DNA of 64,000 bases, from contig OZ237752.1 of the NCBI GenBank assembly GCA_965178125.1, positions 372,001 through 436,000 on the forward strand, read 5' to 3'. Each line of letters starts with the position of its first letter. Position 1 is the stretch's first letter. The position numbers and the translations under genes were made by a program. Below the pieces are notes generated by a model, which saw only the letters and a list, made by a program, of their open reading frames with translations, had not been told where the DNA came from and did not search any database. Shown here in pieces: positions 2,241 through 36,396 of this stretch. The stretch is from Bilabrum cf. latius. Taxonomy: Eukaryota.

Positions 2241-5200
2241 TCACAAATGTAAAGCGCTCTCCAGCAGTGCCTCCACCTGCGGGCACGGCCGCCCAGCGGA
2301 TCGCAGCTGGGACAGCAGATCGGTCCCAGGTACTGCAGTACCCACCGCGCCCTCGGGGGGATGCATGGCCAGCGAGGCAACCAGGGAGACAGCAGCACAG
2401 GCAGCGCCATGCCCTGCACATCCCATGCGCACCTCCCACGCGTCCACCAGCACCCTCACGCACTCGTCATGGCCCCCGAGCAATGCCGCCACTAGCGGAC
2501 CGCTCAACCAGCCCGAGTGACCAGGCCCCGGGACATCCACCACTGCCACTACCACCGGGCCACGAAGCTCCATCCCACCCGCCAGCTTGCCGAGCCTCAG
2601 CCGCTTGGCCAGCTCCAGCGGCCTGCCCTCCCTGGCAGCTCGGTGCACCATGACAGCGTCTCGTTTGGCCTCCACGGCCCTCCTCCACCGGGCCAAATGC
2701 AGGATCCTCGGGTTAAACTCCCGGATGAGCTTGGCCGTGGCTGTCTTGCCCCTGCGGTCTGCTTCCTCTGCTGGGGTGCGTCCGTCCTGCGGCAGTAAGT
2801 GACAGCACGCAATACGTTCGGAAGTATGTCAGTAAGCTGATAAGTCGAATCAATCGCAAGAAAATATGGCTCACCTTGTTCTTGGCCGTCCTGCTGGCTC
2901 CGGCCCGCAGCAGAGCGAAAGCCGCGGCGTCCCTGCCATAGTATGCGGCTTGATGGAGAGGGGTGCCCTTGTACTGCGGAATCAAGTAGCCACAGATGCG
3001 TATCATCATCTCAGTGTGAATGCCAACCCACATTCATGTTCAAGGTCCGCAGGGGGGGGGAAGGGGGGCGGCGAGGAGCAGCTAGATTGACACGGATCTA
3101 TTGATTTCCCGGTTCCTAGAAAAGCGCTGGCGTGCTCCGACCTGGTCGCGAGCGCAGCCACCCAATAGCATGCACATAGGCAAAGCCAACACACCAACTA
3201 CAATCCCATCAATCAGCAAACCAATAATGGTCATCCACGTGCGAGGAACGGGCCAGATTGGCCTGGCCTACGAACAGGATGCTCAGAGCAAGCAACTGCT
3301 TCGGCTATGGAATGAGTTGATTCACTATCTCGATTTTGCACACAGGCCCGCTGATTCCTATGGTATAAATCTCATCGTCTAGCTCCTCCTACATGCTGAG
3401 CTACCTCAGCTCCCAAGACACAAGCGCTCCTCGACCACCTCACGACCAGCCCGCACCCTTCCCATGCCGAGTCACAGGGAGCACCAACTCCCATGCATCC
3501 AATCATCCAATCTACACATGCATCGCAACAACTCACCGCATCTAAAGCGTTCACATTGGCCCCGGCTGCCACAAGCGCACCCACCACGTCGACATTGGCT
3601 GCCCAGTGCAGCGGGGTGCGCTTGTGCTGTGAGGAAGGAAAGCGAGGGACGGCAAAGTAGGAATGGCAAGCGATGGCAATGGAAGGCAAAAAGATGGGAC
3701 AGCAGCGCGAAGTCAGAACCAGAGCATCGGCGTAGCACAAGACACCCATGGACTGGCCTCTGGCCCCCACAGGTTACGCTGCACCCACTCGCCCCAGCAC
3801 CAAGCCGGCACTGGCACCATTCCCTTATACCCACCACCAGTCTCAAATACGATCGCATGACCAAATCGCCAGACCATGCAGCCATCCATCCGGGCCTGCG
3901 ACAATGCCGCCCGGCGGTCATGGTCGCAAGCTGGGCGAAACGCAGTAGGCTGAAGGCGACAATAGCAAACCTTGGATTGTGTGCATCATGCGCACATCGG
4001 GAGCAGCTCGATGCACGGACTCAGCATCTGATTCGAACCTAGACTACAGATCAGATTTGTTGCCCCCGGTCCCGCGGACCCACTGGGCTTCACCCCGAAC
4101 GACTGGTTCTTCACCGGTCCACCTGAATGCGGTATTCATCTGACACTACGAATGTACACACCACTTTCCCCATGCACCCGACTCGCCTCGTCGCCACATG
4201 GCTTTCTGTTCCTGTTCCCCGCCCTAGGGACCGTGTGCTTTGCTCCCAGCATTACCACCTTGGCCCTATCCTTTCAGCTTGCACGCACCGGTCCTGGCCG
4301 ACCTGCCGTGCGCCCCATCTGTCCACCCACCTGTTGGCCTTCTGCGTGCTGCTGGCCATGCAGTCCGCTGCCACCCGCGTCTCCCTCGTGCCTTGCACCT
4401 GGAGCCCCCATTCCTCCCGTTGTGTTCTCCCTGTTGACACCGCACTGTCGTCGCCTGTGCCGGTGCCCCCCTCTTCTTCTCCACCTCCTGTCCTCCTGCG
4501 CCCACCTCGTCTTCCGTCTCACCTCTGCTCCCCGTTGCTTCAATCCTGATGTCCGAGTACATTAACAGGATCGCCTTCTGGTTCCCCCTGCATCCCGAGC
4601 TACTCCGGCTGCAGATAGCCCATAAAACAAACCAGTCACTACATATACAACACATCCAGCATGTTCACACTCATCTAATCATCCCATCCATACATATATC
4701 GAATCAACTCACCCAGCCCTCAGCATTAACATCGGCCCCCGCCGCCACAAGCGCACCCACCACGTCGGCATGGCCCGTTTCAGCTGCCCAGTGCAGCGGT
4801 GTGCTCTTGTCCTGTGAGGAAGGGAAGCGAGGGACGGCAAGCGTGGATGTGAGGGGATGGCAATGGAAGGCCAAACGGGGGGGGCAGCGAACGGAAGTCA
4901 GAACCAGAGCATCGGCGTAGCACAAGACACCCATGGACGAGCCTCTGGCCCCCACAGGTTACGCTGCACCCACTCGCCCCAGCACCAAGCCGGCACTGGC
5001 ACCATTCCCTTATACCCACCACCAGTCCCAAATATGGTCGCCCGACCAAATCCCTTGACCATCCAGCCATCCATCCGGGCCTGCGACAATGCCGCCCGGC
5101 GGTCATGGTCGCAAGCTGGGCGAAACGCAGTCGGCTGAGGGCTGAAGATTGGGACTGCCGGATTGTGTGCATAATGCACCCAGCAGACGCAGCTTGATGA

Positions 5201-8200
5201 GAGGACTCAGCATCTGATTGAATCGCCTTCTGGTTACGCCTGCATTCCGACCTATCCCGGCTCCAAGACACAAGCCCTCCTTGACCACCTCACGACCAGG
5301 CCGCTCCCTTCCCATGCCGAGCCACAGAAGGAACACCGACTCCCATGCATCCAATCATCCCATCTATTCGACGGCTGCCGGCGCTGTTCATGTTAAATGA
5401 ACGGAGCAGGATTTCAGCCCAAAATTACCCAATCTCCGCCCCTCTCCTGAACACAGAGCGGGTATGCGCGTCATCGCAAGCAATCCGTTGGCTTGGTCGC
5501 ACCTTCCCGGTCGCAACCGCCATCGGAACCCAACGAGAAATTCACGCGCTCCCACTCTGGCATCAACAACGAACCCCATCCGGCGTTAGAATCAATACAT
5601 CACATCAACTCACCTCATCCTAAGCGTTCACATTGGCCCCCGCTGCCACCAGCGCACCCACCACGTCGGCGTTGCCCTCTCTGGCTGCGAAGTGCAGCGG
5701 GGAGTACTGGCCCTGTGAGAAAGGAAAGCGAGGGACGGCGGTGGTAGGGTATGGCAATGGAAGGCAAAAGGGGGGGGCAGCGAACGCAAGTCAGAACCAG
5801 AGCATCGGCGCCGCGCAATCCACCCATGGACGGCCCTCTGGCCCCCACAGGTTCCGCTGCACCCACTCGCCCCAGTATCCATCCCAGTCTCAAATCATAC
5901 GCCAATACATTATCGCCAGACCACCCAGCCATCCAGCCAGGACTGCAGCAAGGCCGCCCGGCGGGCATGGTCGCAAGCTGGGCGAAGCGCAGTCGGCTGA
6001 AGGCGGTAGATCGCAACTGTTGGATTGTGTGTATAATGCGCCCAGCAGACGCAGCTCAACTCGATGATTCAGCATCTGGATGAATCTCCTTCTAGTTCCG
6101 CCTGTATCCCGAGCTATCCCGGCTCGCAAGACACAAGCGCTCCTTGACCACCTCACGACCAGCCCGCACCCTTCCCATGCCGAGTCACAGGGAACACTTA
6201 CTCCCATGCATCCAACCATCCCAGCCACGCATACATCACAGCAACTTACCACATCTAAAGCGTTCACATTGGCCCCGGCTGCCACAAGCGCACCCACCAC
6301 GGCGGCGTGGCCATTCCCGACTGCGCTGTGCAGCGGTGTGAACTTGTACTGTGAGAAAGGAAAGCGAGGGACGCCAAAGGGGGGAATGACAAGCGATGGC
6401 AATGGAAAGGCCCGAGAGGGGGAAAGCAGCGAACGCAAGTCAGAACCAGAGCTTCGGCGCCGCGCAATCCACCCATGGACGGCCCTCTGGTCCCCACACG
6501 TTCCGCTGCACCCACTCGCCCCAGCACCAAGCCAACATTGGCACCAGTCCAGCATATCCATCCCCAGTCTCAAATACGATCGCATGACCAAATCGCCAAA
6601 CCATCCAGCCATCCATCTGGGACTGCGGCAAGGTCGCCCGGCGGTCATGGTCGCTTGCTGGGCGAAGGGCAGTTTGCTAAATGCGATAGATCGCAACTGT
6701 TGGATTGTGTACAACTCGCACCCATCGGACGCAACTCGATGAGATGATTCAAGATCTGGTTGGATCGCCTTCTTCTTCCGCCTGCATCCGGAGCTATCCC
6801 GGCTCCAAGGCATAAGCGCTCCTCGGCCACCTCACAAAAACTCACATAGCCCTCAGCGTTCACATTGGCCCCCGCTGCCACAAGCGCACCCACCACGTCG
6901 GCATGGCCCTTTTCGGCTGCCACGTGCAGCGGTGTGCGCTTGTCCTGTGAGGAAGGGAAGCGAGGCACGGCAAGAAAGGAATGGGAAGGCATGGCAATGG
7001 AAGGCCAAACGGGGGGGCAGCGAACGCAAGTCAGAATCAGAGCCTCAGCGTAGCACAATCCATCCATGGACGAGCCTCTGGCCCCCACAGGTTCCGCTGC
7101 ACCCACTCGCCCCAGCACCCAGCCGGCACTGGCACCATTCGAGCATATCCACCCGCAATACCAACTTCGATCGCACGACCAAATCGCCAGACCACAGATG
7201 CAGCCATCCGGGACTGCAGCAAGGCCGCCCGGCGGGCATGGTCGCAAGCTGGGCGAAGCGCTGTCGGCTGTAGGTGATAGATCGCAACAGTCGGATTGTG
7301 TGCATAATGCGCCCATCAGACGCAGCTTGATGCGAGGACTCGGCATCTGGTTGGATCGCCTTCTGGTTCCCCCTGCATTAAGAGCTATCCCGGCTAAAGA
7401 TACCGCATAACAAAGACCAGTCAATACATATCCAACACATCCAGCATGTTTCCATGCATCCAATCATCCCAGCCATCCATACATCATAGCAACTCACATC
7501 GTCCTCAGCATTCACATCGGCCCCCGCTGCCACAAGTGCACCCACCACGTCGGCATTAGATGCAAAATGAAGCGGTGTGCACTCGTACTGTGAGGAAGGA
7601 AAGCGAGGCACGGCAAAGGGAGGATAGAAAGGGATGGCAATAAGAAGGCCAGAAAGGTAGTTCAGCGAACGGAAGGCAGAATTAGAGCATCGGCGCCGCG
7701 CAATCCACCCATGGACTAGCCTCTCGCCCCCACAGGTTCCGCTGCACCCACTCGCCCCAGCACCAAGCCAGCTCTGGCACCATTCCCGCATATCCACCCC
7801 CGAGTCCCAAATTATATCCCACAACCAAATCACTAGACCATCTGTCCATCCCACCAGAACTGCGGCAAGGCCACCCGCCGGTCATGGCCCCAAGCTGGGC
7901 GAATGCAGTCCGCTGACGGCGACAGATCGCAACTGTTGCATTGTGTGCATTATGCGTCCACCGGACGCAGCTCGATGAGAGGACTCAGGATCTGGTTGAA
8001 TCGCCTTCTGGTTTCCCCCTGCATTAAGAGCTCTCTCGGCTCCCAAAACACAAGCGCTCCTCGACCACCTCACGACTAGGCCGCACCCATCCCATGCCAA
8101 GCCACAGGGAACACCAACTCCCATGCATCCAATCATCCCAGCCATCCATACATACATCACAGCAACTCACTTTACCCTCAGCATTCACATCGGCCCCCGC

Positions 8201-10136
8201 TGTCACAAGCGCACCCACCACGTCGGCATTAGCTGAATAATGAAGCGGTGTGCGCTTGTACTGTGAGGAAGGAAGGCGAGGGACGGTAAAGGGGGGTGCG
8301 AAGGGATGGCAACAAGAAAGCCAGAAAGGAAGGGACAGCAAACGGAAGTCAGAATCAGAGCATCGGCACCGCGCAATCGACCCATGGACGGCCCTCTGGT
8401 CCCCACACGTTCCGCTGCACCCACTCGCCCCAGCACCAAGCCGGCACTGGCACCATTCGAGCATATCCACCCGCAATACCAACTTCGATCGCACGACCAA
8501 ATCGCCAGACCACAGATGCAGCCATCCGGGCCTGCGACAAGGCCGCCCCGCGGTCATGGTTGCAAGCTGGGCGAAGCGCTGTCGGGCTGTAGGTGATAGA
8601 TCGCAACTGTTGCATTGTGTGCATAATGCACCCATCGGGCAAAGCTCGATGTGAGGACTCAGCATCTGGTTGGATCGCCTTCTGGTTCCCCCTGCATTAA
8701 GAGCTATCCCGGCTCAAAGACGCCCACCCTTGCTTGGTGTCCCTGGAGGCAGCCCTGGCCCAATGCACGCTGTCACACCCACTCAAGTCCGATTCGATGC
8801 GGCTGAGTACAGATGTACAGCTAGTTAGAGTGATATACTACTGCTGCACGATATCGATGAGCATATGCTACCTGCTGGCATCCAGCATCGGGGTGTTCGC
8901 ACCCCTGCCAGCCAGCAGTGGCAACCTCATCATGCCCGCGGGCGAAAGGAAGAGCTTGCGTGCTGTCCAAGTGCAATGCAATCAGCTCTAGAGACATTTC
9001 ACCGACCCCGTCTGCTTGTTGTCAACATGGCACAAACCACCCAATGGCCCCATGCTCCACAGCGCAGGAGAGCGAAGTTGTTTTGTCCCAGCCGCGCCGA
9101 TCCTATATCTAATGGAGATGCAAGCAATTCGCGGCCCAGTGAAGAGATCCACTCCAGTCATACACGAACAAAACGACAAACACTCCCCGTCTGCTACCTG
9201 CAGCCAACTGCGCTCTGCCTCTATTGATGCAGAAGATCATTGCAAAGTATCCCACTACGCCGGAAGGAGGATTCCTCGCGCAAAGACACACTCCGCTACA
9301 TGAACCAGCTGAACACCGTCACGAAACGTAAGACAACACAAACTAGGGGCACACCACAAGCAGGTACCATGCATCCAAAACCATGTTGCAACCGATCTAG
9401 TGGCCCATGATGGGCCCTTGAAGAGTGCTTTCACGTCGCCAAGGAGAAGGGCAACGACATTTGGAGCAAGATTCGCATCCGTGATAGACTTGAATCACAT
9501 ATTCTGTGTATGGACTCACGTCATTTTGGGCATCGACTGCTCCCCCAGCCTCCACCAGCGGCACGATGCACGCCTTGTGTCCGTTGTGGCTCGCCCAATG
9601 CAGCGGGGTCCATTCCTTGCTGCCACTAGAGCCCTGCGATCCTAGCAACGGCGCACACTTAATTATCACTACGCCGTAGCTTGTGGTTGGGCCAGTGGAG
9701 GGAAATAGCCACCCACTCCAGATTGGTGGCGAAAAGTGACAAACGGCAATCCATGATTCTGGCTGATACCATCCCTTTCAACACCCACATTTGCCAGATA
9801 ATACCCATTCTGTCTAGAATATCTCCTAACATGCGTGCACACTCACGTCTCCTGTCACGTTCGCGCTCGTCCCAGATGCCAGCGCAGACTGCAGGGCCTC
9901 CAAATGGCCGTTCTTGGCCGCTTCAAGAAGAGCAGCTGACCTGCAGAAGGCGTGAATTGTCATACATACCATTTCGCTTACTTCAATTTGAAGCAAAAAC
10001 TGCAATTATCCTACACATTCGGAACACAGCCATCGAGCAATCCAGACACCAAGTACACACGAATCGAGTCTTAAATACGGGCCCTTACTATCCATCAAGG
10101 AGAAGATATGCATGGAGCATTACATAGTACTTACAT
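2241..10136 (-). CDS. Ankyrin cassette-exon gene, copy 1 (~506 aa if all exons are used): N-cap, 7 one-repeat cassette exons, C-cap and the shared C-terminal module
   Basis: Exons: AT 10136-10135, 9940-9847, 9633-9520; cassettes 8260-8171, 7587-7498, 6944-6846, 6348-6250, 5712-5614, 4811-4713, 3626-3537; then 2973-2875 and 2786-2241 (TGA). All are bounded by cag|...|gt(g/a)ag and carry TPLH..A...G...VVGALVAAGADVNA motifs. One in-frame TAG at 5620. Confidence 0.85.
3390..8720 (-). repeat. Tandem array of ~600-700 bp units, each one ankyrin exon plus a homologous intron (7 units)
   Basis: Recurring intron blocks such as GTCAGAACCAGAGCATCGGC, CCGCTGCACCCACTCGCCCCAGCACC and GGTCATGGTCGCAAGCTGGGCGAA. 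Two units carry unrelated insertions (~4045-4545 and ~5365-5595). Confidence 0.95.
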
Positions 10137-10198
10137 GATCCAAGGATGCAGGCGAATGCGCTGTTGTTGTCGGCTAGTTGGTTGTGGGGAGGATCAGA

Positions 10199-13100
10199 GA
10201 GAGAATAGATATCTGTATCAAAGCACACACTACCCAACTGCAACGACCACCCCGTGGGGCAATCGCATCAGGTAGGTCGAACGGATCAGCAGGCTCACGC
10301 CGCAGGGTTCGCAAGCTGGGCTGCTCCTCCGTGGGGGTTCTGCGTTGCTTGCAATCCTTCGGCGTTCGCATTGCCTTCGTGTTCGATCGCGTCCGGATCA
10401 GCTGCCTGATCTGCTGCCTCACCATCAGCTCCTGCCGCAGGTGCGACGTTCACTGGTGGTATGACAGGCTCTTCAGCTGCCTCCAAACCCATGCCCTACG
10501 CACCGCCAGCCCCACCAGCCTGCTGCAGTGCCGCTCCGAGCTGCGCAGCCTCCGCTGCCACTTGCTCGTCCACTTGACCACCAGCTCCTGCTGCGGCTAC
10601 TCCTTGTACACCAGTTGGTGCCATCTGCTTCAGCTGCTCACAAACGTTAAGGTTGAATTTGTTCGTGAAAGCGGCGTTCCGCATGGCCACCAGTCTGGCA
10701 ATATCCCGGGCCCAGAACCTGACCTGGGCATCCACTGACTTGCTCCCGTTCTTCCCCAGTCGCTTTCGCCTGATGCGTGCTAGCAGCTCAAGCACTCCTC
10801 TTGCTCCATCCCCGATTCGGCCCGAGGGCTGAACCACGAAATCTCGAAAGATCACCGTGTTCGGGTTCTTCAACGTCTTCACCGGGTTCCCCGTGGCTCC
10901 GCTTGGGATGCGACCGGCCAGCCTCCGGTGTGCGGGCATCTCCTGGTGGATCTCCTTGTGTTTCCTGAATGCTCCCCTGATCCCAGCGACTTCGTCCTGG
11001 TAGTCGGTGCCAACCGGTTTTCCTGGACCTGTGCGTTCCCCGATGTGATCTCCCGTCTTTTTCCTCCGGTTGATCGAAGAGAGTGCCGCCTGCGCGAGTG
11101 GATCCACGCAGGTCACATCGATCAGGATGTCTTTCTCCCCTTCCGCCCGGGGGATCACCACATCCATCCTGTACGTGCCGCCCTCCACGTACTGCTCCGT
11201 ATCCTCTGAGAGTGCTTCATACCCCGTAGCACTCTGGCCAATCCTGCACAACTCCCTCTTGACGACCTCATGAATGCTCGTGAGTCGCTTCTTGTCCATC
11301 GGCCGCTTCTTCCGATTTCCACAGCAGCTCATGTGTCCCACCTGGTGAATATATCCGATTCTGTGTTGACACTCGGAGTCGGGGCACACCAGGTTCATCT
11401 CTGCCTGCAGGTTGTGCATCCCATCTTGGTGCTGCAGCCTCCTAAGCACCTCCTGTGCTTGCCTTGCTGATGGTGACGGTGCCATCAGGCGTTTGCAAAA
11501 CTCTTCCTGGTACCCTCTATTGGCTGGAATGGAGACCCCTTCGCCAAACTTGTCCTTCACGTATCGAGCGCGCAGTAGCGCTCCGGCGTCGGCTGATCTA
11601 CGGCTCCTGATCAGCGCTCGTGCTTTCTGCATCTCTACTCGGGCCCTGTCTGCCCATTGTTGGTCTTCTCCTAAGAGGCGTTGTTGGAATCCTGGAATGT
11701 TCTGGAAGGGCTTCACGAGGAAGACCTCAGTACAGGCGCGGTCTGCTGCCTGTCTCATCAAGCTCTCGTGGTGGCCTCCAAAACTCATCGGCTTGTCCCC
11801 TGCAAGTCGCTGCTGCTCCCGAAGGTAGCTCTTCAACCCTTTCGCTTCCAACATGAAGCGTTCTGGGTTTGTGGCGTTCCGTTTCGCCTTGGCCACATTG
11901 TCCATCGGGTCTACGTTGATGAACACACCCTGCTGGGTCTTCACTCGGACTTTCTCAATCTTGTCCGGAGTGATGAGCTCGTGCTCTGCACACTTCACCG
12001 CCTTCTCGAGTGCTGTCCTCATCTCTGGGTCGGTGAGCATCGCTTGGGTTCTAATTGGGTCCCACACTGAACGCGTGAAACCCGGCATGTCCCCGTGGGG
12101 CACCGGTTGGTACTACAACTGGTACTTGAGGCGTTGTTTGGGGTCCTCCTTGGCCGATCGAACCAGCCCCTTCATCTTGTACAAAACCCAACGCACAGCC
12201 CAGTCCGCAACCTGGAGCACGGGCGCACTGTGAAGTCCGAACGTGTCGTGTTGGTTGTTGACTGGACCTGCGGTCGTCTCCTCAACCTGGTTCAGTTGGC
12301 TCATGAAGTCCAGGTTGTACTCTTTCGCCAGACCCGCTAAGCCTGGCAGCACGTCCAGGATCATTCCTGCGAATCGTGCTACTAGGGGTAGACGCTCTGG
12401 GATCAGTGCGAGCCCTACTCCTCCCTGAGCTAGAGGAGCTTTCCTCTAATGACGGATGAGCTCAGCTCGTAGGAGCTGGTCATGCGCTCGGTAGAGGCGA
12501 GTGTCGAACCCTGCGATGAGGTCTGCGAAGGCCTCTTCGAGGCGTTCCACTCTCTGCAACGTCCCTGCATTCTCCAGGCCAATGAGGATACCGCTCCTGC
12601 AGAAATGCTGCCACTTGGGTTGGATGCACGTTCGAAAAACGTATACTGCCAGAGATGGCTTCATGAGGCCGCATAGAACGACACCATTTGCAACGTCTTC
12701 CAGCCGTTTCTTGAGGTGCGTCTCAACATACTCCCTGGTGCGCGACACTGGGATGCCAGCCACGACGATTCCAGCTTCATTCAGCTTGCCTTGGAGCCCC
12801 CCTTCATCAATCTCAGCACGAATAGCAATTCGTGTAGATTCTGATGGCGAGTAGAACTCCGTCTTGGCAGGCTGCAGCGTGAGGTTATCCTTCTCCACCT
12901 CCGCCTTCAAGGTAGTCATGCAGGCTGCTACCTTTTCCTGTGTTCCGAGCAGGAATGCATCATCCGCGATCGCAAGGATGATTACGTCGGGATGTGCGGC
13001 TCGTGTTGCTTTGAGGGCCCTGTCAAAACCCAGACAGAACAACGGTGAGCTCATGGGCGATCCTTGGACCACCCCTTGCCGATTTTTCAGGATGTCAACC

Positions 13101-14046
13101 TCTCCATCCGATCCTACAATCACCGAGTAGCCTGGTGATCGAAACTCCGCTGCAACGAAGGGGAGGGCTTCTGACTTGTCCTCCCTTAGCACTTTCATGA
13201 TGGACTCCCTCTCCACCGTGCCGTAGGCGTTCTTCATGTCCACGTGGGCTGCTGTTCTCTCCGGGAAGGTCGACAGGTAAGTGCGGACCAGGAAAGATAT
13301 GGCGTCTGCTCCACATGGCAGGCCACCTCCAAACTGCTCTGGCTTGCACCTATTCCCAACTGACGGCTTGAGCCCTTCGCCGAGGTGCTTGAGGAGTGGG
13401 AGCAGGAGGTTGGAGCCCATGCCTAAAGGTCTGGGTTCCGGCTTCCCCGGCTTCGCAATCCCTATGCCTCGACCGAGAGTCAGAAGCGTCCGTGCAAGTG
13501 GTGGGACCCAGCCGGACCCGAGGGCGGTGTACAGCTGCTAGACAAGGTCTGCCTGTCCCCTGGTGATCTTGTCAGCAACCTCTCTCGACATCCCTAGACT
13601 GTCGACTGCCCTGTTTCTCTTGAACTCCTGCAGGTGCGAAATTGACTTCCCTTTGCTGTCTGACACCAGCATTCTGCTTCGCGCAGTATACCGGCAGCGT
13701 GCGTGCTGGAGCTCGACTTCAGCAGTGCAGTCGCGTCCCGTAGGATATACGGGCACAGCCACGAGGTGAACGTTCGTTTAAGCTGCTTGCGGTTCTTGGT
13801 GTTGAAGATCATCTGGAAGACGGACTGGTCTCGTGCGCCATGTTGGCACCTGTAGACTGCGGCCATGTTCGCCATAGGTCCCTGGGCACTAGGTTCGTGC
13901 TTGACCATGTACCACGCGGTTAGCTGCATGTGGGCAGGCGTGTCTCCGCTCAGCAGCACCAGTGAGCAGCCGTACGCCTGTGAGACAGCTCTGGCCATCG
14001 CGTCGGCCGGCCAGACCAGCGCCCTGACCGTGTCCTTCGGCATGTT
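10199..14046 (-). mobile_element. Non-LTR retrotransposon with RT, CCHC-like Zn knuckle and restriction-like endonuclease (CRE-clade-like), 5'-truncated or rearranged
   Basis: One reading frame from ~13770 to TGA at 10295 when 4 TAGs (13538, 12446, 12113, 10496) are read through. Motifs: KPGKPEPRPLGMG, VDMKNAYGTVER, GVVQGSPMS, IADD, PLAQGGVGL, CPDSEC..H..CC, RMDVV...IDVTCVDP. The 3' UTR ends in ATTCTCTCTCT. Confidence 0.9.
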
Positions 14047-14579: not shown

Positions 14580-14711
14580 CACCAGCACCTCCCGCCGCAC
14601 CTGACGGTCCCACAGGCTGGCCTCTCGCCCTTTACCACCCGCCGATCACCCCACCGAAAGTCAGACTCAGCTGCGGCTCTCCCCGACACCCCCCCTGCAC
14701 TCGCCGCACGA

Positions 14712-17700
14712 TCACAAATGTAAAGCGCTCTCCAGCAGTGCCTCCACCTGCGGGCACGGCCGCCCAGCGGATCGCAGCTGGGACAGCAGATCGGCCCCAG
14801 GTACTGCAGTACCCACCGCGCCCTCGGGGGGATGCATGGCCAGCGAGGCAACCAGGGAGACAGCTGCACAGGCAGTGCCATGCCCTGCACATCCCATGCG
14901 CACCTCCCACGCCTCCACCAGCACCCTCACGCACTCCTCATGGCCCTCGAGCAATGCCGCCACTAGCGGACCGCTCAACCAGCCCGAGTGACCAGGCCCC
15001 GGGACATCCACCACTGCCACTGCCACAGGGCCACGAACCTCCATCCCACCCGCCAGCTTGCCGAGCCTCAGCCGCTTGGCCAGCTCCAGCGGCCTGCCCT
15101 CCCTGGCAGCTCGGTGCACCATGGCAGCATCTCGTTTGGCCTCCACGGCCCTCCTCCACCGGGCCAAATGCAGGATCCTCGGGGTAATAAACTCCCGGAT
15201 GAGCTTGGCCGTGGCTGTCTTGCCCTCTCGGTCTGCTTCCTCTGCTGGGGTGCGTCCGTCCTGCGGCAATAAGTGCCAGCACGCAATACGTTTGGAGGTA
15301 TGCCAGTAAGCTGACAAGTCGAATTCATCACAAGCAAACCCATCTCACCTTGTTCTTGGCCGTCCTGCTGGCTCCGGCCCGCAGCAGAGCGAGAGCCGCG
15401 GCGTCCCTGCCAAAGTAGGCGGCTTGATGGAGAGGGGTGTCGTTGTACTGCGGAATCAAGTAGCCAAAGATGCGTATCATCATCTCAGGGCGAATGCCAA
15501 CCCACACTCATGTTCAAGGTCCGCAGGGGGGGCGGCGAGGAGCACTGCTGGTAGCCTGGATCTATCGATTTCCCGGTTTCTAGAAATTCGCTGGCGTGCT
15601 GAGACCTGCTCGCGAGCGCAGCCACCCAATAGCATACACATAGAACTCACCAACTACAATCAAATCAAACAGCAAACCAATAATGGTCAGACACGTGCGA
15701 GGAACGGGCCAGATTGGCCTGGCCTACGAACAGGATGCTCGGAGCAAGCAACTGCTTCGGCTATGGACTCAGTTGATTCACTATCTCGATTTCGCACACA
15801 GACCCGCCGACTAAAATGGTATGAATCCCACTATCTAGCTCCATCTACATGCTGAACTACCTCAGCTCCCAAGACACAAGCGCTCCTCGGCCACCGCACG
15901 ACCAGGCCGCACCCTTCCCATGCCAGGTCACAGGAAACACAAACCAGCTAGCACACGTCCGACACCACCAGCATGCGTCCATGAAAACTATCATCCCATC
16001 CATGCATACATCACCAAAACTCACATTGTCCTCAGCATTCACATCGGCCCCCGCTGCCACAAGCGCACCCACCACGTTGGCGTGGCCCTCTCTGGCTGCA
16101 AAGTGCAGCGGGGAGTACTGGCCCTAAACGGAAAGAAAGCGAGGGACAGCAAGAAGGAATGGGAAGGGATGGCGATGGAAGGCCAAAAGAAGGAAAGCAG
16201 CGAACGGAAGTCAGAACCAGAGCATCGGCACCGCGCAATCCACCCATGGACGACCCTCTGGCCCCCACAGCTTCCCGCTGCACCCACTTGCCCCAGTACC
16301 AAGCCAACACTGGCGCCATTCCAGCACATCCACCCCCAGTCGCAAATATAATCCAGCCATCCATCTGGAACTGCAGCAAGGCCGCCCGGCGGTCATGGTC
16401 CCAAACTGGGCGAAGCGCAGTCGGCTGAAGGCGATAGATCGCGACTGTTGGATTGTGTGCAACTCGCGCCCATCGGACGCAGCTCGATGAGATTATTCAA
16501 GATCTGGTTGGATCGCCTTCTTCTTCCGCCTGCATCCCGAGCTATCCCGGCTCCAAGGCACAAGCGCCCATCGGCTACCTCACAAACACTCACATAGCCC
16601 TCAGCATTCACATCGGCCCCCGCTGCCACAAGCGCACACACCACGGGCGCATTGCTATTCTAGGCGGCTTCAAGAAGCGGGGTGATCTTGTTCTGTGAGG
16701 AAGCAAAGCGAGGGATAGCAAGAAAGGAATGGAAGGAGATGGCAATAGAAAGGCAAAAAGGGAAACAGCGAACGGAAGTCAGAACCAGAGCATCTGCGCC
16801 GCGCAATCCACCCATGGACGGGCCTCTGCCCCCCACAGCTTCCCGCTGCACCCACTCGCCACAACATCAAACCCACATTGGCACCAGTCCAGCATATCCA
16901 CCCCAGTCCCAAATACAAAGACACAATCGCATCCGCGACTAGACCATCCATACAGCCATCCAGGACTGCGGCAAGGCCGCCCGGCGGTCATACTCGCAAG
17001 CTGGGCAAACTGCAGTCGGCTGAAGGCTGAAGATTGCAACTATTGCATTGTGTACAACTCGCACCCATCGGACGCAGCTCGATGAGATAATTCAACATCT
17101 GGCTGCATCACCTTCTGGTTCCCCCTGCATCCCGAGCTATACCGGCTCCCAAGACATAAGCGCTCCTCAACCACCTCACGACCAGGCCGCACCCTTCCCA
17201 TGCCGAGTCACAGAAGAAACACCAACTCCCGTGCATCCAATCATCCCATCCCATCCACATATCACGAAAACTCACCTCATCCTCAGCGTTCACATTGGCC
17301 CCCGCTGCCACAAGCGCAGCCACCACGTCGGCGTTGCCCCATCTGGCTGCCCAGTGCAGCGGGGTGCGCTAAGCCTGTGAGGAAGGAAAGCGAGGGACGG
17401 CAAGGGGGGATAAAGAGGCATGGCAATGGAAAGGCAAAAAGGGGGGGACAGCGAACGGAAGTCAGAACTACAGGATCGGCGTTGCGCAATCCACCCATGG
17501 ACGGGCCTCTGGCCCCCACAGAATCCGCTGCACACACTCGCCACAGCATCAAGCCGGCACTGGCACCATCCGAGCATATCAACCCCCAGTCCCAAATACA
17601 AATACACAATCGCATCCGCGACTAGACCATCCATCCAGCCAGCCAGCCATTCAGGACTGCGGCAAGGCCGCCCGGCGGTCATGGTCGCAAGCTGGGCGAA

Positions 17701-20700
17701 GCGCAGTCGGCTGAGGGCGGTAGATCGCAACTGTTGGATTGTGTGCATAATGAACACATCAGGCGAAGCTCGATGAGATGATGCAAGGTCTAGTTAGAAA
17801 GCATTCCGGTTCCGCCTGCATCCCGAGCTATCCCGGCTCCAAGGCAGAAGCGCTCCTCGGCCACCTCACAAACACTCACATAGCCCTCAGCATTCACATC
17901 GGCCCCCGCTGTCACAAGCGCACCCACCACGGCGGCTTGGCTCTTCCCGGCTGCAACGTGCAGCGGGGTGTCCTTGCTCTGTGAGGAAGGAAAGCGAGGG
18001 ACAGCAAAGGGGGATCGGAAAGGCATGACAATGGGAGGCAACAAGGGGGGGACAACGAAAGGAAGTCAGAACCAGGAACCAGAGCATCGGCACCGCGCAA
18101 TCCACCCATGGACGGGCCTCTGGCCCCCACAGGTCCCGCTGCACCTACTCGCCCCAGCACCAACCTGACACGGGCACCATTCCCGCATATCCATTGCCAG
18201 TCCAAACATAAACACGCAATCATATCGGCGACCAGACCATCCAGCCATCCATCTGGAACTGCAGCAAGGCCGCCCGGCGGTCATGGTCGCAAGCTGGGCG
18301 AAGCGCAGTCGGCTGAAGGAGACTGATCGCGACTGTTGGATTGTATACAACTCGCACCCATCGGACGCAGCTCGATGCGAGGACTCAGGATCTGGTTGGA
18401 TCGCCTTCTGGTTCCGCCAAGACACAAGCGCTCGTCGACCACCTCATGACAACCAGGCCGCACCCTTCCCATGCCGAGTCACAGGGAAAACTTACTTCCA
18501 TGCATTCAATCATCCAAACTACATATACATCACATCAGCTCACATTGTCCTCAGCATTCACATCGGCCCCCGCTGCCACAAGAGCACCCACCACGTCGGC
18601 GTGGCCCTCTCCGGCTGCAAAGTGCAGCGGGGTGCCCTAAGCCTGTGCAGAATGGAAGGATGGCAGCAAGGGAAGCAGCGAACTCAAGTCAGAACCAGAG
18701 CATCGGCGCCGCGCTATCCACCCATGGACAGGCCTCTGCCCCCCACAGGTTACGCTGCACCCACTCGCCACAACATCAAACCCACATTGGCACCAGTCCA
18801 GCATATCCATCCCCAGTCCCAACTACACAATCATATCGGCGACCAGACCATCCAGCCAGCCAGCCATTCAGGACTGCGGCAAGGCCGCCCGGCGGTCATG
18901 GTCGCAAGCTGGGCGAAGCGCAGTCGGCTGAAGGAGACTGATCGCGACTGTTGGATTGTATACAACTCGCAACCAGCAGACGCAGCTCGATGAGATGATT
19001 TAGCATCTGGTTGAACCGCCTTCTTCTTCCGCCAAGACACAAGCGCGCCTCGACCACCTCACGACCAGGCCGCAACCTTCCCATGCCGAGTCACAGGGAA
19101 CACTTACTCCCATGCATCCAATCATCCCAGCCATGAATACATCACTACAACTCACCCCGTCCACAGCATTCACATTGGCCCCCGCTGCCACAAGCGCACA
19201 CACCACGTCGGCATTGGCTGCCTTGTATAGCGGCGTGCACTTAAACTGTTAGGAAGGAAAGCTAGGGACAGCAAGAAGGGAATGGAAAGGGATGGTAATG
19301 GAAGGCAACAAGGGAAGCAGCGAACGGAAGTCAGAACCAGAGCATCGGCACCGCGCAATCCACCCTTGGACAAACCTCTGGCCCCCACAGAATCCGCTGC
19401 ACCCACTCGCCCCAGCACCAAGCCGGCACAGGCACCATTCGAGCATATCCACCCCCAGTCCCAAATACAAATATACAATCGCATCCGAGGCTAGACCATC
19501 CATCCAGCCAGCCATCCGGGACTGAGGCAAGGCCGCCCGGCGGCCATGCTCGCAAGCTGGGCGAAGCGCAGTCGGCTGAGGGCGGTAGATCGCGACTGTT
19601 GGATTGTGTACAACTCGCAACCAGCAGACGCAGCTCGATGAAATGATTCAACATCTGGTTGAACCGCCTTCTGGTTCCGCCTGCATCCCGAGCTATCCCG
19701 GTACAAGATATCCTATAACACAAACCAATCAATACAGAACCAACACATCCAGCATGCTTCCAATCATCCAACCACCCCATCCATCCATACATCACAGCAA
19801 CTCACCCAGGCCTCAGCATTCACATCGGCTCCCGCTGCCACCAGCGCACCCACCAATGCGGCGTGGCCCTTTCCGGCTGCAAAGTGCAGCGGGGTGCGCT
19901 GGTCCTGTGAGGAAGGAAAGCGAGGGACGGCAAGGGGGGATCGGAAAGGCATGACAATGGAAAGGCAAAAAGAAGGGAAGCAGCGAACGAAAGTCAGAAC
20001 CAGAGCATCGGCACCGCGCAACCCAACCATGGACGGGCCTCTGGCCCCACAGGTTCCGCTGCACCCACTCCCCCAAGCACCAAGCCGGCACTGGCACCAT
20101 TCCAGCATATCCACCCCCAGTCCCAAACATAATCACGCAATCATATCGGCGATTAGACCATGCAGCCATCCATTCGGGACTGCCTCACTGCGGCAAGGCC
20201 GCCCGGCGGTCATGGTCGCTTGCTGGGCGAACCGCAGTCGGCTGAAGGAGATTGATAGCAATTGTTGGATTGTGTGCGACTTGCAGCCAGCAGACGCAGC
20301 TCGATGAAATGATTCAGCATCTGGTTACATAGCCTTCTTCTTCCGCCTGCATCCCGAGGTATACCGGCTCCCAAGACACAAGCGCTTACCAGCCACCTCA
20401 CGACCAGGCCGCACCCTTCCCATGCCGAGTCACAGAAGAAACACCGACTCCCATGCATCCAATCATCCCATCCCATCCATATATCACGAAAACTCACATA
20501 GTCCTCAGCATTCACATCGGTCCCCGCTGCCACAAGCGCACCCACCACGTCGGCGTTGCCCTTCTCGGCTGCAAAGTGCAGCGGGGTGCCCTAAGCCTGT
20601 GAGGAAGGACAGCTAGGGATAGCAAAGGGATGGCAATGGAAAGGCATGGCAATGGAAGGCCAACAAGGCGAAGCAGCGAAGGCGAGTGGGAACCAGAGCA

Positions 20701-23700
20701 TCGGCGCCGCGCAATCCACCCATAGACGGGCCTCTGGCCCCCACAGCTTCCCGCTGCACCCACTCGCCACAACATCAAACCCACATTGGCACCATTCCAG
20801 CATATCCACCCCCAGTCCCAAACACGATCGCACGACCAAATTGCCAAATCGCCAAACCATCCATACATCCAGCCATCCAGGACACTGCGACAAGGCCGCC
20901 CGGCGGTCGTGGTGGCAAGCTGGGCGAAGCGCAGTCGGCTGAAGGCGATAGATTGCAACTGTTGGATTGTGTGCATAAGGTGCCGTCATCGGACGCAGCT
21001 CGATGAGATGATTCAAGATCTGGTTGGATCGCCTTCTTCTTCCGCCTGCATCCGGAGCTATCCCGGTGAGAAAAACTGGCGAGCGCTGCCCCTCAGCATC
21101 CGAATAGCACGTGGCTTGATTGCCGCTCAAGTCTAATTGTGACCTCTCAACTTCCACATCCGCATGTGGTCGGGTGATCCGATCCCTTTGATCCTAGTCA
21201 CTCGTCACACACATGCACAACCCCCCACCTTCCCGGCCTGTGCCTCCCCCTTACCACCCGCCGTATCAACCCGATGATCCCACCAATCATCTCCTCTTCC
21301 ACTACTCCCTCACCCCCCCTCCCCCCTTCGGTGAACCGTCGCCCCCTCTCCCTCTGCTCCGTCCTCACCTCACCTCACCCGCGCCAACCTCCCTCTCTTC
21401 GCCCACCCCTCGTTGCCGCCGCTCCTGCACCTCCTCCCTAGCCGCTCTCTCTCACTCCTCCGGCTTTGACTCAGACATATTATATTCTCTCACTCCTCCG
21501 GCGTGAGCTTGCTGATCCGTTCGACCTGCCCAGTGCGATTGCCTCTGGGGATGGTCGTTGTAGTTGGGTAGTGTGTGCTTTGACTCAGACATATTATATT
21601 CTCACTCCTCCGCATCGCTACGTCGCATCTGAGCCTGCACCTCGAGCGGGTCCTGCGCCCACCGCGCGACCTCAACCTTAGAGACCTTATTGGCCTCACC
21701 AACAATCCTATAACACAAACCAATCAATACAGAACCAACACATGCAGCATGTTTCCAATCATCCAGCCATCCCATCCATCCATACATCACTACAACTCAC
21801 CCAGGCCTCAGCATTCACATCGGCTCCCGCTGCCACAAGCGCACCCACCACGTTGGCGTGGCCCTCTCTGGCTGCAAAGTGCAGCGGGGTGCGCTGGTCC
21901 TGTGAGGAAGGAAAGCCAGAAACGGCAAGGGGGGATCGGAAAGGCATGGCAATGGAAAGGCAAAAAGAAGGGAAGCAGCGAACGAAAGTCAGAACCAGAG
22001 CATCGGCACCGCGCAACCCAACTATGGACGGGCCTCTGGCCCCACAGAATCCGCTGCACCCACTCCCCCCAGCACCAAGCTAGCACTGGCACCATTCCAG
22101 CATATCCACCCCCAGTCCCAAATACAAATATACAATCGCATCCGAGGCTAGACCATCCATACATCCAGCCATTTAGGACTGAGGCAAGGCCGCCCGGCGG
22201 TCATGGTCGCTTGCTGGGCGAACCACAGTCGGCTGAAGGAAATAGATCGTAACTGTCGGATTTTGTGCATAAAGTGCCCTCATCGGACGCAGCTCGATGG
22301 GATACTTCAAGATCTGGTTGGATCACCTTCTTCTTCCGCCTGCATCCCGAGCTATCCCGGTACAAGGTATCCTATAACGCAAATCATTCAATACAGATCC
22401 AACACATCCAGCATGCTTCCAATCATCCAACCACCCCATCCATACATCACAGCAACTCACATAGCACTTTGCGTTCACATCGACTCCCGCTGCCACAAGC
22501 GCACCCACCACGTTGGCGTGGCCCTTGTAGGCTGCTTCATGAAGCGGTGTGCACTGGCCCTGTGAGGAAGGAAAGCCAGAAACGGCAAGGGGGGTGGGAA
22601 GGCATGGAAATGGGAGGGCAACAAGGGGGGGACAGCGAACGGAAGTCAGAACTACAGGATCGGCGTTGCGCAATCCACCCATGGACGGGCCTCTGCCCCC
22701 CACAGGTTCCGCTGCACCCACTCGCCCCAGCACCAAACCAGCACTGGTACCATTCGAGCATATCAACCCCCAGTCCCAAATACAAAGACACAATCGCATC
22801 CGCGACTAGACCATCCATCCAGCCAGCCAGCCAGCCATTCAGGACTGCGGCAAGGCCGCCCGGCAGTCATGGTCGCAAGCTGGGCGAAGCGCAGTCGGCT
22901 GAACTGTGGGATTGTGTGCATCATGTGCCCATCGGGCGAGACTCAACGCGAGGATTCAGCATCTGGTTGGATCGCCTTCTGGCTCCGCCCGCATCCCGAC
23001 CTATCCCGGCTCCTAGACGCCCTCCCTTTCTTGGTGCTCCCGGAAGCAGCCCCGGCCCAATGCACGCTGCCACACCCACTCAAGTCCGGTTTGATGCGGC
23101 TGAGTACAGATGTACAGCTAGTTAGAGGGATGTACTACTGCTGCACGATATCGATGAGCATATGCTACCCGCTGCCATCCCTGCCAGCCAGCCGTGGCAG
23201 GCTCATCATGCCGGCGGGCGAAAGGAAGAGCTTGCTTGCTGTCCAAGTGCAATGCAATCAGCTCCAGAGACATTTCACCGGCCCCGTCTGCTTGTTGTTG
23301 TCAGTATGGCACAACCCAATGGCCCAATGCTCCACACCGCGGCGATCGAATGTCAAATGGAGATGAAAGCACTTCGCAGCACAGCGAAGAGATCCACTCC
23401 AGTCATACACGAACATAACGTCAAACACTCCCCGTCTGCTACCTGCAACCAATTGCGCTCTGCCTCTATGCTAAGGCCGAGGCACGAGCGCGAGCAGCAG
23501 CCGCATCTTCAGCACCCGAGGAGCGCCGGCCACTTGCTGGACCGGGACCTGGCCGCATCGCGGGCAGCCTTGCACCTACCGCCGGTCTCGGGCCAAGACT
23601 AGCAGCAGGCACAACAGATGGGCTGGCCTGAGGCGCTGGGGACGCCGCGGCGGCCGCCTGAGCCCCGCCAGAAGATACAGAATTGGACCGGCTCTTTGAT

Positions 23701-25367
23701 GCCGCCCGACGTTCAGCACGCTCAGTACGCTGCTATGATGCCTTACTTGAATCCATAGTAGAGCAAGAGGTTAAGAAGCGAAAACTGGCGAACGCTGCCC
23801 CTCAGCGCCCGAATAGCACGCGGCTTGATTGCCGCTCGAGTCTAATTGTGACCTCTCAACTTCCACATCCGCATGTGGTCGGTGATCCGATCCCCCTGAT
23901 CCGAGTCACTCGTCACACATGCCCAACCCACACCTGCCCGGCCTGTGCCTCCCCCTTCCTATCCGCCTCATCAACCCAATGACCCCACCGATCATCTTCT
24001 CTTCCACCATTTCCTCCCCCGTTCCGGTGAACCGTCGTCCCCCCCTCCCTTTGCTCTACCCTCCCCCCCCTAGCTGCCCCCTCTCTCTCTCTCTCTCTCT
24101 CTAGGAGCTGAGGGTGCAGCACCGGACGAGGCGGCTGATCCGAACGCAATCGAACACGAAGGCATCGCGAACGCAGATGGACCGCAAGCAGCGCAACTCC
24201 CCCACGGAGGAGCGGCCCAGCTTGCGGAGCCCATGGCGTGAGCTTGCTGATCCGTTCGACCTGCCCAGTGCGATTGCCTCTTGGGGTGGTCGTTGTAGTT
24301 GGGTAGTGTGTGCTTTGACTCAGACATATTATATTCTCTCTCTCTCTCGCACTCCTCCGCATCGCTACGTCGCATCTGAGCCTGCTCCTCGAGCGGGTCC
24401 TGCGCCCACCGAGCGACCTCAATCTCAGAGACCTTGCTGGCCTCACCAACGAAGATCATTGCCAAGTATCCCACGACGCCGGAAGGAGGATTCCTCGCGC
24501 AAAGACACACTCCGCTACATGAACCAGCTTAATACACACACGAAACGTAAGACAACACAAACTAGGGGCACACCACAAGCAGGTACCATGCATCCAAAAC
24601 CATGTTACAACCGATCTAGTGGCCCGTGATGGGCCCTAAGAGAGTGCTTTCACGTCGCCAAGAAGAAGGGCAACGACATTTGGAGCCCGATCGCATCCGT
24701 GATAGACATGAATCACATATTCTGTGCAGGGACTCACTTTATTTTGGGCATCGACTGCTCCCCCAGCCTCCACCAGCGGCACGATGCACGAGTTGTGTCC
24801 GTTGTGGCTTGCCCAATGCAGCGGGGTCCAATCCTTGCAGCCACTAGGGCCCTGCGATCCTAGCAACGGCGCACACTCAAATATCACTTTAGAACATGAA
24901 TGCCGTGGCTTGTGGTTAGGCCAGTGGAGGGAAATAGCTACGCACTCCAGATTGGTGGCGAAAAGTGACCAACAGCAATCCATGATTCTGGCCGATACTC
25001 TCCCTCTCAACACCCCAGTTTGCCAGTCAAAATACCCATTCTGTCTAGAATATATCATAACATGCGTGCACACTCACGTCTCCTGTCACGTTCGCGCTCG
25101 TCCCAGATGCCAGCGCCGACTGCAGGGCCTCCAAATGGCCGTTCTTGGCCGCTTCAAGAAGAGCAGCTGACCTGCAGATGGTGTAAATTGACATACATAC
25201 CATTTCGCTTACTTCGATGTGAAGCAAAAATTGAGATTATCCTACACATTCGGAACACACCCATCGAGCAATCCAGACACCAAGTACACACGAATCGAGT
25301 CTTAAATGCGGGCCCTTACTATCCATAAAGGAGAAAATATGCATGGGACATTACATAGTACTTACAT
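14712..25367 (-). CDS. Ankyrin cassette-exon gene, copy 2 (~612 aa): 10 one-repeat cassette exons and the shared C-terminal module
   Basis: Exons: AT 25367-25366, 25171-25078, 24851-24738; cassettes 22559-22461, 21899-21801, 20596-20498, 19904-19806, 19245-19156, 18642-18544, 17978-17880, 17374-17276, 16692-16594, 16123-16025; then 15447-15349 and 15260-14712 (TGA). In-frame TAGs at 20591, 18637, 17369 and 16660. Confidence 0.85.
15830..23020 (-). repeat. Tandem array of ankyrin exon plus intron units (10 units)
   Basis: Same unit structure and intron motifs as 3390-8720. Confidence 0.95.
21068..21703. mobile_element. Non-coding dispersed element (AAAACTGGCGA...TGGCCTCACCAAC) with retrotransposon 3'-end fragments inside
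   Basis: Same ends as 23781-24450 and 39543-40794. Absent from the paralogous intron site at ~19700 (CCCGGT-acaagat-ATCCTATAAC). Confidence 0.75.
23470..24450. mobile_element. Composite ~1-kb intronic insertion: a dispersed repeat, the non-coding element and a retrotransposon 3' end
   Basis: Absent from the equivalent position of copy 1 (~9225). 24103-24350 is homologous to the reverse complement of 10199-10440. Confidence 0.75.
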
Positions 25368-36258: not shown

Positions 36259-36396
36259 CGGATGCTAGAACGGCATTTGCTTCTTGACCGACGGATGATG
36301 CAAGACTACCTATGCATCCGTGCTGGATCTTCTTGGTTTGCATTTGCTTCTCACTCTCAGATGGCCCAGAACGATAAAAATTACTATTATTTTAAC

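Follow-up and report, generated by a model that had tools for sequence, protein, structure and literature searches.

Tandem ankyrin genes with one repeat per exon: probable members of a germline-diversified binder family in a genome that most likely reads TAG as glutamine

We analyzed a 64,000-nucleotide stretch of DNA from Bilabrum cf. latius (GenBank assembly GCA_965178125.1, contig OZ237752.1, positions 372,001 to 436,000; hereafter the window), eukaryotic DNA with a base composition of 55–68% G+C, in which minus-strand frames with ankyrin signatures extend from 2.2 to 25.4 kb. These frames form two tandem paralogues, both on the minus strand and named here gene A and gene B, which carry arrays of single-repeat exons (the cassettes) between fixed end exons. 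Taken together, the evidence makes it probable that A and B are intact, expressed members of a lineage-specific, germline-diversified family of cytosolic ankyrin-repeat binders whose exons are spliced in genomic order. Each protein would form a solenoid composed of an N-terminal cap (N-cap), one fixed repeat, seven or ten variable repeats, a C-terminal cap (C-cap) and a conserved ankyrin-like end module. Diversity would arise in the germline via replacement substitutions under diversifying selection at hairpin and first-helix positions, via unequal crossing-over or gene conversion between homologous units, which would add, remove or swap repeats, always in frame, and via tandem duplication of whole genes; the cassette exons would then be spliced in the order in which the genome holds them.

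The gene models were built by nucleotide-level reading of the minus strand, with exons set between a preceding CAG and a following GTGAGT, and all 23 introns of the two genes run from GT to AG. Gene A (9972..2241) has 11 exons and 516 codons, with its ATG at 9972 and its TGA at 2241–2243, and gene B (25203..14712) has 14 exons and 622 codons, with its ATG at 25203 and its TGA at 14712–14714. Both follow a common plan, namely an N-cap exon of 42 codons, a fixed ankyrin exon of 38 codons, the cassettes, a C-cap exon of 33 codons, an intron of 88 nt and a last exon of about 181 codons. In gene A, the N-terminal capping repeat is encoded by exon 1 (9847..9972, ending in phase 0), a homologue of exon 1 of gene B, whose donor site is confirmed by a splice joint. 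It is followed by the fixed first ankyrin repeat (9520..9633, 114 nt), the cassette array (3537..8260), the C-cap ankyrin exon (2875..2973, 99 nt) with the 88-nt intron behind it, and a last exon (2241..2786) that holds one ankyrin-like repeat, the conserved C-terminal module and a tail. The corresponding parts of gene B are exon 1 with the N-cap, coding from the ATG (25078..25203), the fixed first ankyrin repeat (24738..24851), the array (16025..22559), the C-cap ankyrin exon (15349..15447) and the last exon with the conserved module (14712..15260). An initial annotation, made from the sequence alone, had described the fixed N-cap and C-cap exons of the paralogues as near-identical, and the models bear this out, with 38/42 identical residues in exon 1, 32/38 in exon 2 and 29/33 in the C-cap exon; the last exons are 94% identical.

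Between the fixed exons lie seven internal cassettes in gene A and ten in gene B. Those of gene A are A1 (8171–8260), A2 (7498–7587), A3 (6846–6944), A4 (6250–6348), A5 (5614–5712), A6 (4713–4811) and A7 (3537–3626), and those of gene B are B1 (22461–22559), B2 (21801–21899), B3 (20498–20596), B4 (19806–19904), B5 (19156–19245), B6 (18544–18642), B7 (17880–17978), B8 (17276–17374), B9 (16594–16692) and B10 (16025–16123). Thirteen of the 17 measure 99 nt and the other four (A1, A2, A7 and B5) 90 nt, and all 17 are in phase 0-0. The gene models thereby confirm the earlier count of 7 versus 10 one-repeat exons with these lengths and phases, and the architecture is as claimed for cassettes that could be lost, copied or swapped in frame. 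A single cassette matches positions 2–31 of the 33 positions of the Pfam Ank family PF00023 (E 7e-10), so that exon edges coincide with repeat edges; in bit scores, A3 reaches 39.1 (positions 2–31) and B9, a cassette with an in-frame TAG, 26.3 (positions 3–31), the gathering cut-off being 21.1. Searched with nhmmer on both strands of the 64-kb window, a DNA profile built from the cassettes recovers exactly these 17 (E 6e-29 to 9e-23), followed at E 0.05 or above by the cap exons.

The introns around the cassettes, which the initial annotation had described as homologous and about 550 nt long, are indeed homologous, with a mean pairwise identity of 79% over the 250 nt upstream of the cassettes and 67% over the 250 nt downstream. 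Among the introns 3′ of the cassettes, 14 of 17 measure 470–593 nt and the other three 802, 1086 and 1204 nt, while the intron ahead of the first cassette spans 1259 nt in gene A and 2178 nt in gene B. Exon and homologous intron together form a repeating unit of about 0.56–0.69 kb.

Five of the 17 cassettes contain an in-frame TAG, a point absent from the initial annotation: A5 at codon 31, B3, B6 and B8 at codon 2, and B9 at codon 11. These are the one TAG of the gene A frame and the four of the gene B frame, and within the 1138 codons of the two genes there is neither a TAA or TGA nor a frameshift. The same pattern extends over the window. Twelve of its open reading frames (ORFs) hold 33 TAG in 9,986 codons, and among 13 long ORFs checked, 12 terminate in TGA and the remaining one at a TAG that its frame reads through. 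The largest example, the ORF at 42016–54450 (+), has 4145 codons, among them 20 TAG but neither TAA nor TGA; the reverse-transcriptase frame adjoining gene A is interrupted by TAG only, and the kinase frame upstream of gene B also reads through TAG. Besides this ORF, places that exemplify the sense TAG are 29110–29115 (+), 10499–13537 (-) and 26141–26143 (-).

Several of these codons stand at positions where the expected amino acid can be named. In the spliced Rab21 gene, the stretch W-D-T-A-G-(TAG)-E-R-F places TAG at the switch-II glutamine, a residue that two homologues share. Sister repeats of the FG-GAP type in the giant ORF have Q at two TAG sites and W at one, and in MIB/HERC2 repeats TAG falls twice on the Q of a G-x-Q-D motif for which sister repeats use CAG. 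Glutamine is thus found at 5 of the 6 informative TAG sites in repeats and motifs, and on these comparisons TAG is most likely a sense codon for glutamine, which leaves the five TAG-bearing cassettes intact. The four largest TGA-bounded ORFs (6,684 codons, 25 TAG) lack TAA, of which about six would be expected if it were used as CAA is relative to CAG; TAG alone has therefore apparently changed, a reassignment that would match NCBI table 15. Instead of codon reassignment, editing of TAG to CAG in the RNA may be at work. A tRNA scan of the window returned no genes, hence no suppressor tRNA within it, and an Rfam scan of the window returned no families. The closest named relatives of the Rab21 gene are from stramenopiles, with 52–61% identity, a level too low to place the organism, and we found no report of a stramenopile with UAG as glutamine in the open-access literature. 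An annotation with the standard code would make a third of the cassettes, and most of the large genes in the window, look broken; reading TAG as glutamine alters the annotation of the whole window.

Splicing was followed in contigs of four sequencing runs (X5 to X8) aligned to gene B, 15 of whose 42 joints are considered here. X5 is of DNA type, and X6, X7 and X8 were guessed to be RNA, X6 also carrying the flag 'probably DNA'. The joints of X6 to X8 have CT..AC ends, equivalent to GT..AG on the minus strand, and their contigs skip introns 1, 2, 3, 6, 10, 12 and 13 of gene B exactly at the predicted borders. Exon 1 is joined to exon 2 in all three runs (24850>25077) and exon 2 to the array (22558>24737); within the array, joints cross introns 3, 6, 10 and 12, and the C-cap exon is connected on both sides (15447>16025 and 15259>15348). 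Three junctions of gene A could be decoded from unmatched letters between joint halves, namely exon 2 to A1 (X6 contig, row 19220>24741), A1 to A2 and A4 to A5. The DNA-type run X5 has none of the spliced joints of either gene. All ten decoded junctions join neighbors in genomic order, and the TAG-bearing cassettes B8, B9 and A5 are among the exons so confirmed. Were X6 to X8 DNA, one would have to take the joined forms for processed copies, which is unlikely. Contig depth, and intron stretches that X6 to X8 leave uncovered, carry no weight in this analysis.

The initial annotation had offered combinatorial splicing as one source of diversity, and the data lend this no support. Besides the ten neighbor-to-neighbor junctions, no clean GT..AG joint that skips a cassette was present among these 15 of 42 joints, in contig data from which rare isoforms are dropped. 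An inverted-repeat scan of gene B gave 11 weak pairs, none of the docking/selector type, and no unique site of gene B complementary to a conserved intron element was found. Some cassette-to-cassette joints of X6 to X8 with extra letters (at 16026–16099, 17277–17366 and 18546–20587) contain cassette starts encoded nowhere in the window, one of them with a TAG at codon 3, so that more members of the family, as further loci or alleles, must be expressed. The DNA contigs of X5 match the pieces of the arrays that they cover without differences, and independent runs reproduce exon-intron pieces exactly.

Variation among the cassettes is unevenly distributed. Their amino-acid identity averages 69% (range 55–88%) around a near-invariant framework, T-P-L-H .. 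G-H .. V-V-G-A-L-V-A-A-G-A-D-V-N-A, and entropy peaks at codons 33, 1, 3, 8, 11 and 12. The positions randomized in designed ankyrin repeat proteins (DARPins), which we take to be 2, 3, 5, 13, 14 and 33, correspond after a shift of register to exon codons 33, 1, 3, 11, 12 and 31, which served as an a priori set. Five of the six most variable codons fall within this assumed set (hypergeometric P 1.5e-4). The exon border itself falls between hairpin positions, so that every hairpin tip is built by two adjacent exons.

The same six a priori codons stand out against the introns. Diversity at codon positions 1 and 2 is 0.538 for these codons, 0.121 for the other 27 and 0.211 for upstream intron columns (permutation P 1e-5), the a priori codons being about 2.5 times as diverse as the intron columns. 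In 200,000 draws each of 12 random intron columns, the value of 0.538 was never reached upstream and was reached with a frequency of 8.5e-5 downstream. Parsimony on three trees assigns 61–75 replacement changes to these codons versus 26–33 expected from the overall synonymous rate, an excess of about 2.3 times neutral (Poisson P 2e-9 to 9e-11), and the replacement-to-synonymous ratio at the other 27 codons is 0.56–0.59. The Nei-Gojobori pairwise nonsynonymous distance (dN) is 1.02 at the six most variable codons; in the framework, dN is 0.057 versus a synonymous distance (dS) of 0.22, with an intron distance of about 0.25. A column-tail test, with diversity of at least 0.6 in 9/99 exon versus 9/247 upstream intron columns, is not significant on its own (Fisher P 0.058). 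Judged by these distances, the framework is under purifying selection, and the direction of the overall contrast is clear: change outpaces the neutral rate on the putative binding face and lags behind it in the scaffold. The comparison with a DARPin-like library made by the initial annotation is upheld as a description of germline evolution, variation being focused on the ankyrin binding surface at an above-neutral rate, and is not supported for the route via combinatorial splicing.

The arrays differ from their surroundings in history as well. Genes A and B lie in a tandem duplication of 12.2–12.5 kb, the unit of which extends from inside an upstream kinase gene to just beyond the ankyrin stop codon. 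One end of the unit is the protein kinase gene 5′ of gene B (25577..26800, minus strand; Pkinase, E 8e-27), and partial kinase copies after each ankyrin gene (about 14141–14560 and 1672–2058, minus strand) mark the breakpoints. Outside the arrays, A and B are 93% identical over 1825 nt on the 3′ side and 92% identical over 981 nt on the 5′ side, whereas alignments of array to array give 78–84% identity in many registers (among the best 45 of 79), in agreement with the earlier claim that the arrays are not colinear between the paralogues. The top pair across the two genes, A3 and B9, is 89–90% identical in the downstream intron and only 79% in the exon. The two intron halves flanking a cassette differ in their nearest relatives, upstream halves grouping within a gene and downstream halves often finding their partner in the other gene. 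The similarity of exons does not correlate with that of their flanks (Mantel r -0.07 and -0.09), A and B cassettes are interleaved in the exon tree, and neighboring cassettes are no more similar than distant ones. This mosaic would be the trace expected of repeated unequal exchange and conversion between units. The initial annotation had named unequal recombination as a diversifier; the arrays have in fact turned over far more than the flanks, and we infer recombination as the cause of that turnover.

Mobile elements accompany the duplication. A retrotransposon with a reverse-transcriptase ORF (10298..13777, minus strand) lies between a partial kinase copy and gene A, and its entry between the two units postdates the duplication. 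Apparent copies of the retrotransposon tail, made of tandem repeats of about 96–110 nt, are found at 10196–10433, 21072–21677, 23780–24422 and 39542–40746, and two of the longer introns of gene B hold truncated retroelement-tail copies. Because a stretch of 243 nt is 100% identical between copies of the retroelement, its sequence suggests recent activity.

The last exon of both genes holds a conserved ankyrin-like module of about 100 residues, for which Pfam has no family. A profile of the module detects four members in the window, namely genes A and B (E 2.5e-41 and 7.8e-42) and two other ORFs (E 1e-36 to 1e-38). One of these is a minus-strand gene (29884..31137) that carries the module at ORF residues 90–196, together with a coiled-coil-like tail; the second, an intron-less ORF of 843 codons on the plus strand (36259..38787), is similar on reading to leucine-rich repeats (LRRs; Pfam gives no family) and ends in the module. 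The four members lie within 37 kb. Searched against 1.84 billion representative proteins, the profile gave 1,510 matches at E≤0.001 and 191 at E≤1e-10. The long proteins with multiple matches are generic ankyrins, and those with a single match cover most of the profile; part of the 191 are generic ankyrin proteins whose match is confined to its last third. Among 19 sequences that were read, the module follows ankyrin repeats (P0004), LRR-like stretches (P0083 and P0092) or unrelated sequence, and the ten end-module proteins looked up are all unnamed ENA or Logan entries.

An AlphaFold2 model of the last exon (mean predicted local distance difference test score 77.5) continues the helical solenoid and contains one hairpin. 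Foldseek found nothing for this model in the PDB at E≤0.001, the weak matches being mostly ankyrin proteins (FEM1B, DARPins and ASB9). A SOCS-box or F-box-like adaptor was considered for the module and nothing supported it. A homologue search of the last exon against longer proteins gave no match, and one with a cassette and 12 flanking intron-encoded residues returned 401 generic ankyrin proteins, of which the 120 listed reach 74% identity at most, without a close member of the family. Metagenome scans yielded no matches with a 23-nt framework motif and, with the end-module profile, 360 pattern stretches without a tblastn relative; the ESM Atlas gave only generic ankyrin and carboxylesterase clusters. 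Neither a signal peptide nor a membrane span was seen when the A and B protein sequences were read, no predictor being used, and we infer the label 'receptor' for these proteins. The variable face would bind diverse ligands, and the shared end module would couple this binding to a common partner.

Several observations weigh against the reading of A and B as a germline-diversified binder family. No NACHT, NB-ARC, ROC-COR or other signaling domain was found in the two gene models, in which the last exon was compared with Pfam and the other exons are ankyrin repeats or caps, and no orphan, inactivated or antisense cassettes were detected by nhmmer in the introns on either strand of the window. 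The selection tests are counting tests that ignore recombination and concern six codons at a priori positions taken from recall. The RNA nature of the runs with spliced joints is a guess, against the flag on one of them, and contigs drop rare isoforms. The youngest pairs of cassettes, at 89–94% identity, are about as old as the gene duplication, and with the youngest pairs of units at 91–94% there is no sign of very recent shuffling; gene conversion that homogenized the flanks of an older duplication could likewise explain why flanks and arrays contrast. Junctions in runs labeled as other organisms follow the order of the window, with no direct sign of a cassette number or order that differs between strains. 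Finally, the mean identity among cassettes is below the level of the fungal repeats described further on.

These points lend some weight to the proposal that A and B are ordinary ankyrin scaffold paralogues with unconstrained surface residues, whose arrays grew neutrally by tandem duplication and constitute no recognition repertoire. Ankyrin proteins are abundant, no signaling domain was found and no duplicates exceed 94% identity. Relaxed constraint, however, predicts diversity at the level of the introns, and what is observed is 2.5 times higher, with replacement changes at about 2.3 times the synonymous expectation on just those positions that form the ankyrin binding face; moreover, the end module is common to proteins with other types of repeat, as expected of a modular family of binders. 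We regard this proposal as unlikely, if still worth keeping in mind. Diversity generated mainly at the RNA level, by combinatorial skipping or choice of cassettes as in Dscam or as reported for the LRR exons of brown-algal ROCO genes, seems to us improbable. Any subset of the cassettes would remain in frame, given their phase and their near-identical splice sites, alternative combinations of LRR exons are described for Ectocarpus ROCO genes in passages of PMC11378527, and the many joints with unmatched letters, together with the 15 joints listed out of 42, leave room for minor isoforms. Yet the assigned junctions are all adjacent without a clean skip among those joints, the odd joints trace to gene A or to other paralogues with cassettes absent from the window, no unique complement to a conserved intron element was found in gene B, and the splicing of adjacent cassettes to each other rules out a one-of-many choice.

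Somatic or clonal rearrangement of DNA, be it cassette copying like that of the lamprey variable lymphocyte receptors (VLRs) or frequent mitotic unequal exchange, would make cells of one culture differ. The homologous units of 0.56–0.69 kb would be good substrates for mitotic recombination, and transcripts do include cassettes that the window does not encode. Against this, both germline genes are complete, with start, stop and canonical splice sites, unlike the incomplete VLR gene; no donor cassettes devoid of splice sites lie nearby, other loci being a simpler source of the additional cassettes, and the DNA contigs of X5 agree with the array pieces that they cover. Such rearrangement is very improbable, and we give even less credence to decaying pseudogenes or a repeat assembly artefact. 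That idea draws on the stops that the standard code would place in 5 of the 17 cassettes and on the adjoining retroelement and partial kinase copies, but all long ORFs of the window read TAG as sense, the 1138 codons are free of frameshifts, TAA and TGA, the framework is under purifying selection and spliced junctions are present. With differences of about 20%, the cassettes are not prone to collapse, and independent runs return the same exon-intron pieces. A germline-diversified family of binders thus remains the preferred reading. A broader proposal, which we consider unlikely, is that a protist has a large repertoire for innate recognition, undescribed as far as our literature searches go, and that the window shows a sample of it, in which hypervariable repeats (ankyrin here, LRR-like in relatives) would be combined with one end module signaling to a common partner, and arrays would often be reshuffled by recombination of units within and between loci, so that strains or even clonal lineages would differ: a natural DARPin library against viruses or parasites, in an organism for which UAG also means glutamine.

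Two other regions of the window were noted. The 4145-codon ORF at 42016–54450 (+) contains near-identical FG-GAP repeats of 207 nt in two blocks (of about 5 and 6 copies, with 89–90% matches), IPT/TIG domains and, on reading, putative membrane-spanning stretches near the C-terminus, and from its sequence it looks like a giant surface protein. At 55253–61734 (-), consecutive ORFs encode MIB/HERC2 domains and a divergent kinase domain and are possibly the exons of one large gene.

In animals, the ankyrin genes ANK1 to ANK3 also have repeats in exons of 99 or 198 nt, one per phase-0 exon, but their introns are not known to be homologous to one another, and their ancient repeats, constant in number, are not known to be hypervariable. 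We found no report of arrays of one-repeat ankyrin exons with homologous introns in the open-access literature. With the exon arrays of Dscam and the cassettes of the lamprey VLR, genes A and B share homologous cassettes that encode a binding surface, a functional analogy only. Unlike in Dscam, adjacent cassettes are spliced together and no docking/selector pairing was found in gene B; unlike the VLR gene, A and B are complete in the germline, including canonical splice sites, and the window contains no extra donor cassettes. The adjacent-exon junctions and the complete germline genes exclude, respectively, a choice of the Dscam type and an assembly of the VLR type.

The closest parallels come from brown algae and fungi. 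Passages of two papers on the ROCO-LRR and NB-ARC-TPR (tetratricopeptide repeat) genes of Ectocarpus and kelps describe one repeat per 72-nt LRR exon, exons of symmetric phase, genes duplicated in tandem, ligand-face residues under positive selection and inactivated cassettes in introns (PMC3341825, PMC11378527). As far as those passages go, genes A and B share with these arrays the one-repeat exons of fixed length and symmetric phase, the tandem duplication, the arrays that differ between paralogues and the diversifying selection on the ligand face. They differ in using ankyrin repeats (99/90 nt) instead of LRR (72 nt) or TPR, without ROC-COR or NB-ARC; their introns lack inactivated or antisense cassettes, no splice variants were seen among the 15 joints considered, and the host reads TAG as glutamine. 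For the ankyrin repeats of fungal NOD-like receptors (NLRs), the passages describe repeats strongly conserved within a protein (at least 85% identity across 100 residues or more), a preceding NACHT or NB-ARC domain, a polymorphic number of repeats, from 7 to over 16, and selected sites on the concave ankyrin face. The conserved framework, the hypervariable inner-helix and hairpin sites and the varying repeat number (7 and 10) recur in A and B, and in both cases recombination between repeats is the proposed diversifier; on the same passages, A and B stand apart in giving every repeat an exon of its own with a homologous intron, in a mean identity of 69% and in the absence of a NOD domain. The fungal repeats presumably lie in continuous coding sequence, the passages being silent on one-repeat exons. 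By analogy, A and B would work like the brown-algal and fungal systems and yet are members of neither, since they have no ROC-COR, NB-ARC or NACHT domain and no orphan cassettes, and their internal identity is 69% versus at least 85%.

The organization of A and B also resembles that of DARPins as presented in part of PMC8683736, with an N-cap, 33-residue internal repeats on one framework, a C-cap and few variable surface positions; the difference is that A and B are natural and genomic, with extra variable positions (8, 2, 14, 16 and 32), a 30-residue variant of the repeat and a conserved C-terminal module. The variable positions nearly coincide with those that engineers chose for DARPins. Arrays with one exon per repeat under diversifying selection are the main argument for fast-evolving candidate immune receptors in brown algae, and internally conserved ankyrin repeats play the same role for fungi. 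The two traits meet at the A/B locus, where an ankyrin scaffold is encoded one repeat to an exon between homologous introns, in what is apparently a different lineage, without an NLR or ROCO core and with a shared end module instead. If a recognition repertoire is indeed what these genes represent, this way of making binders would have evolved repeatedly.

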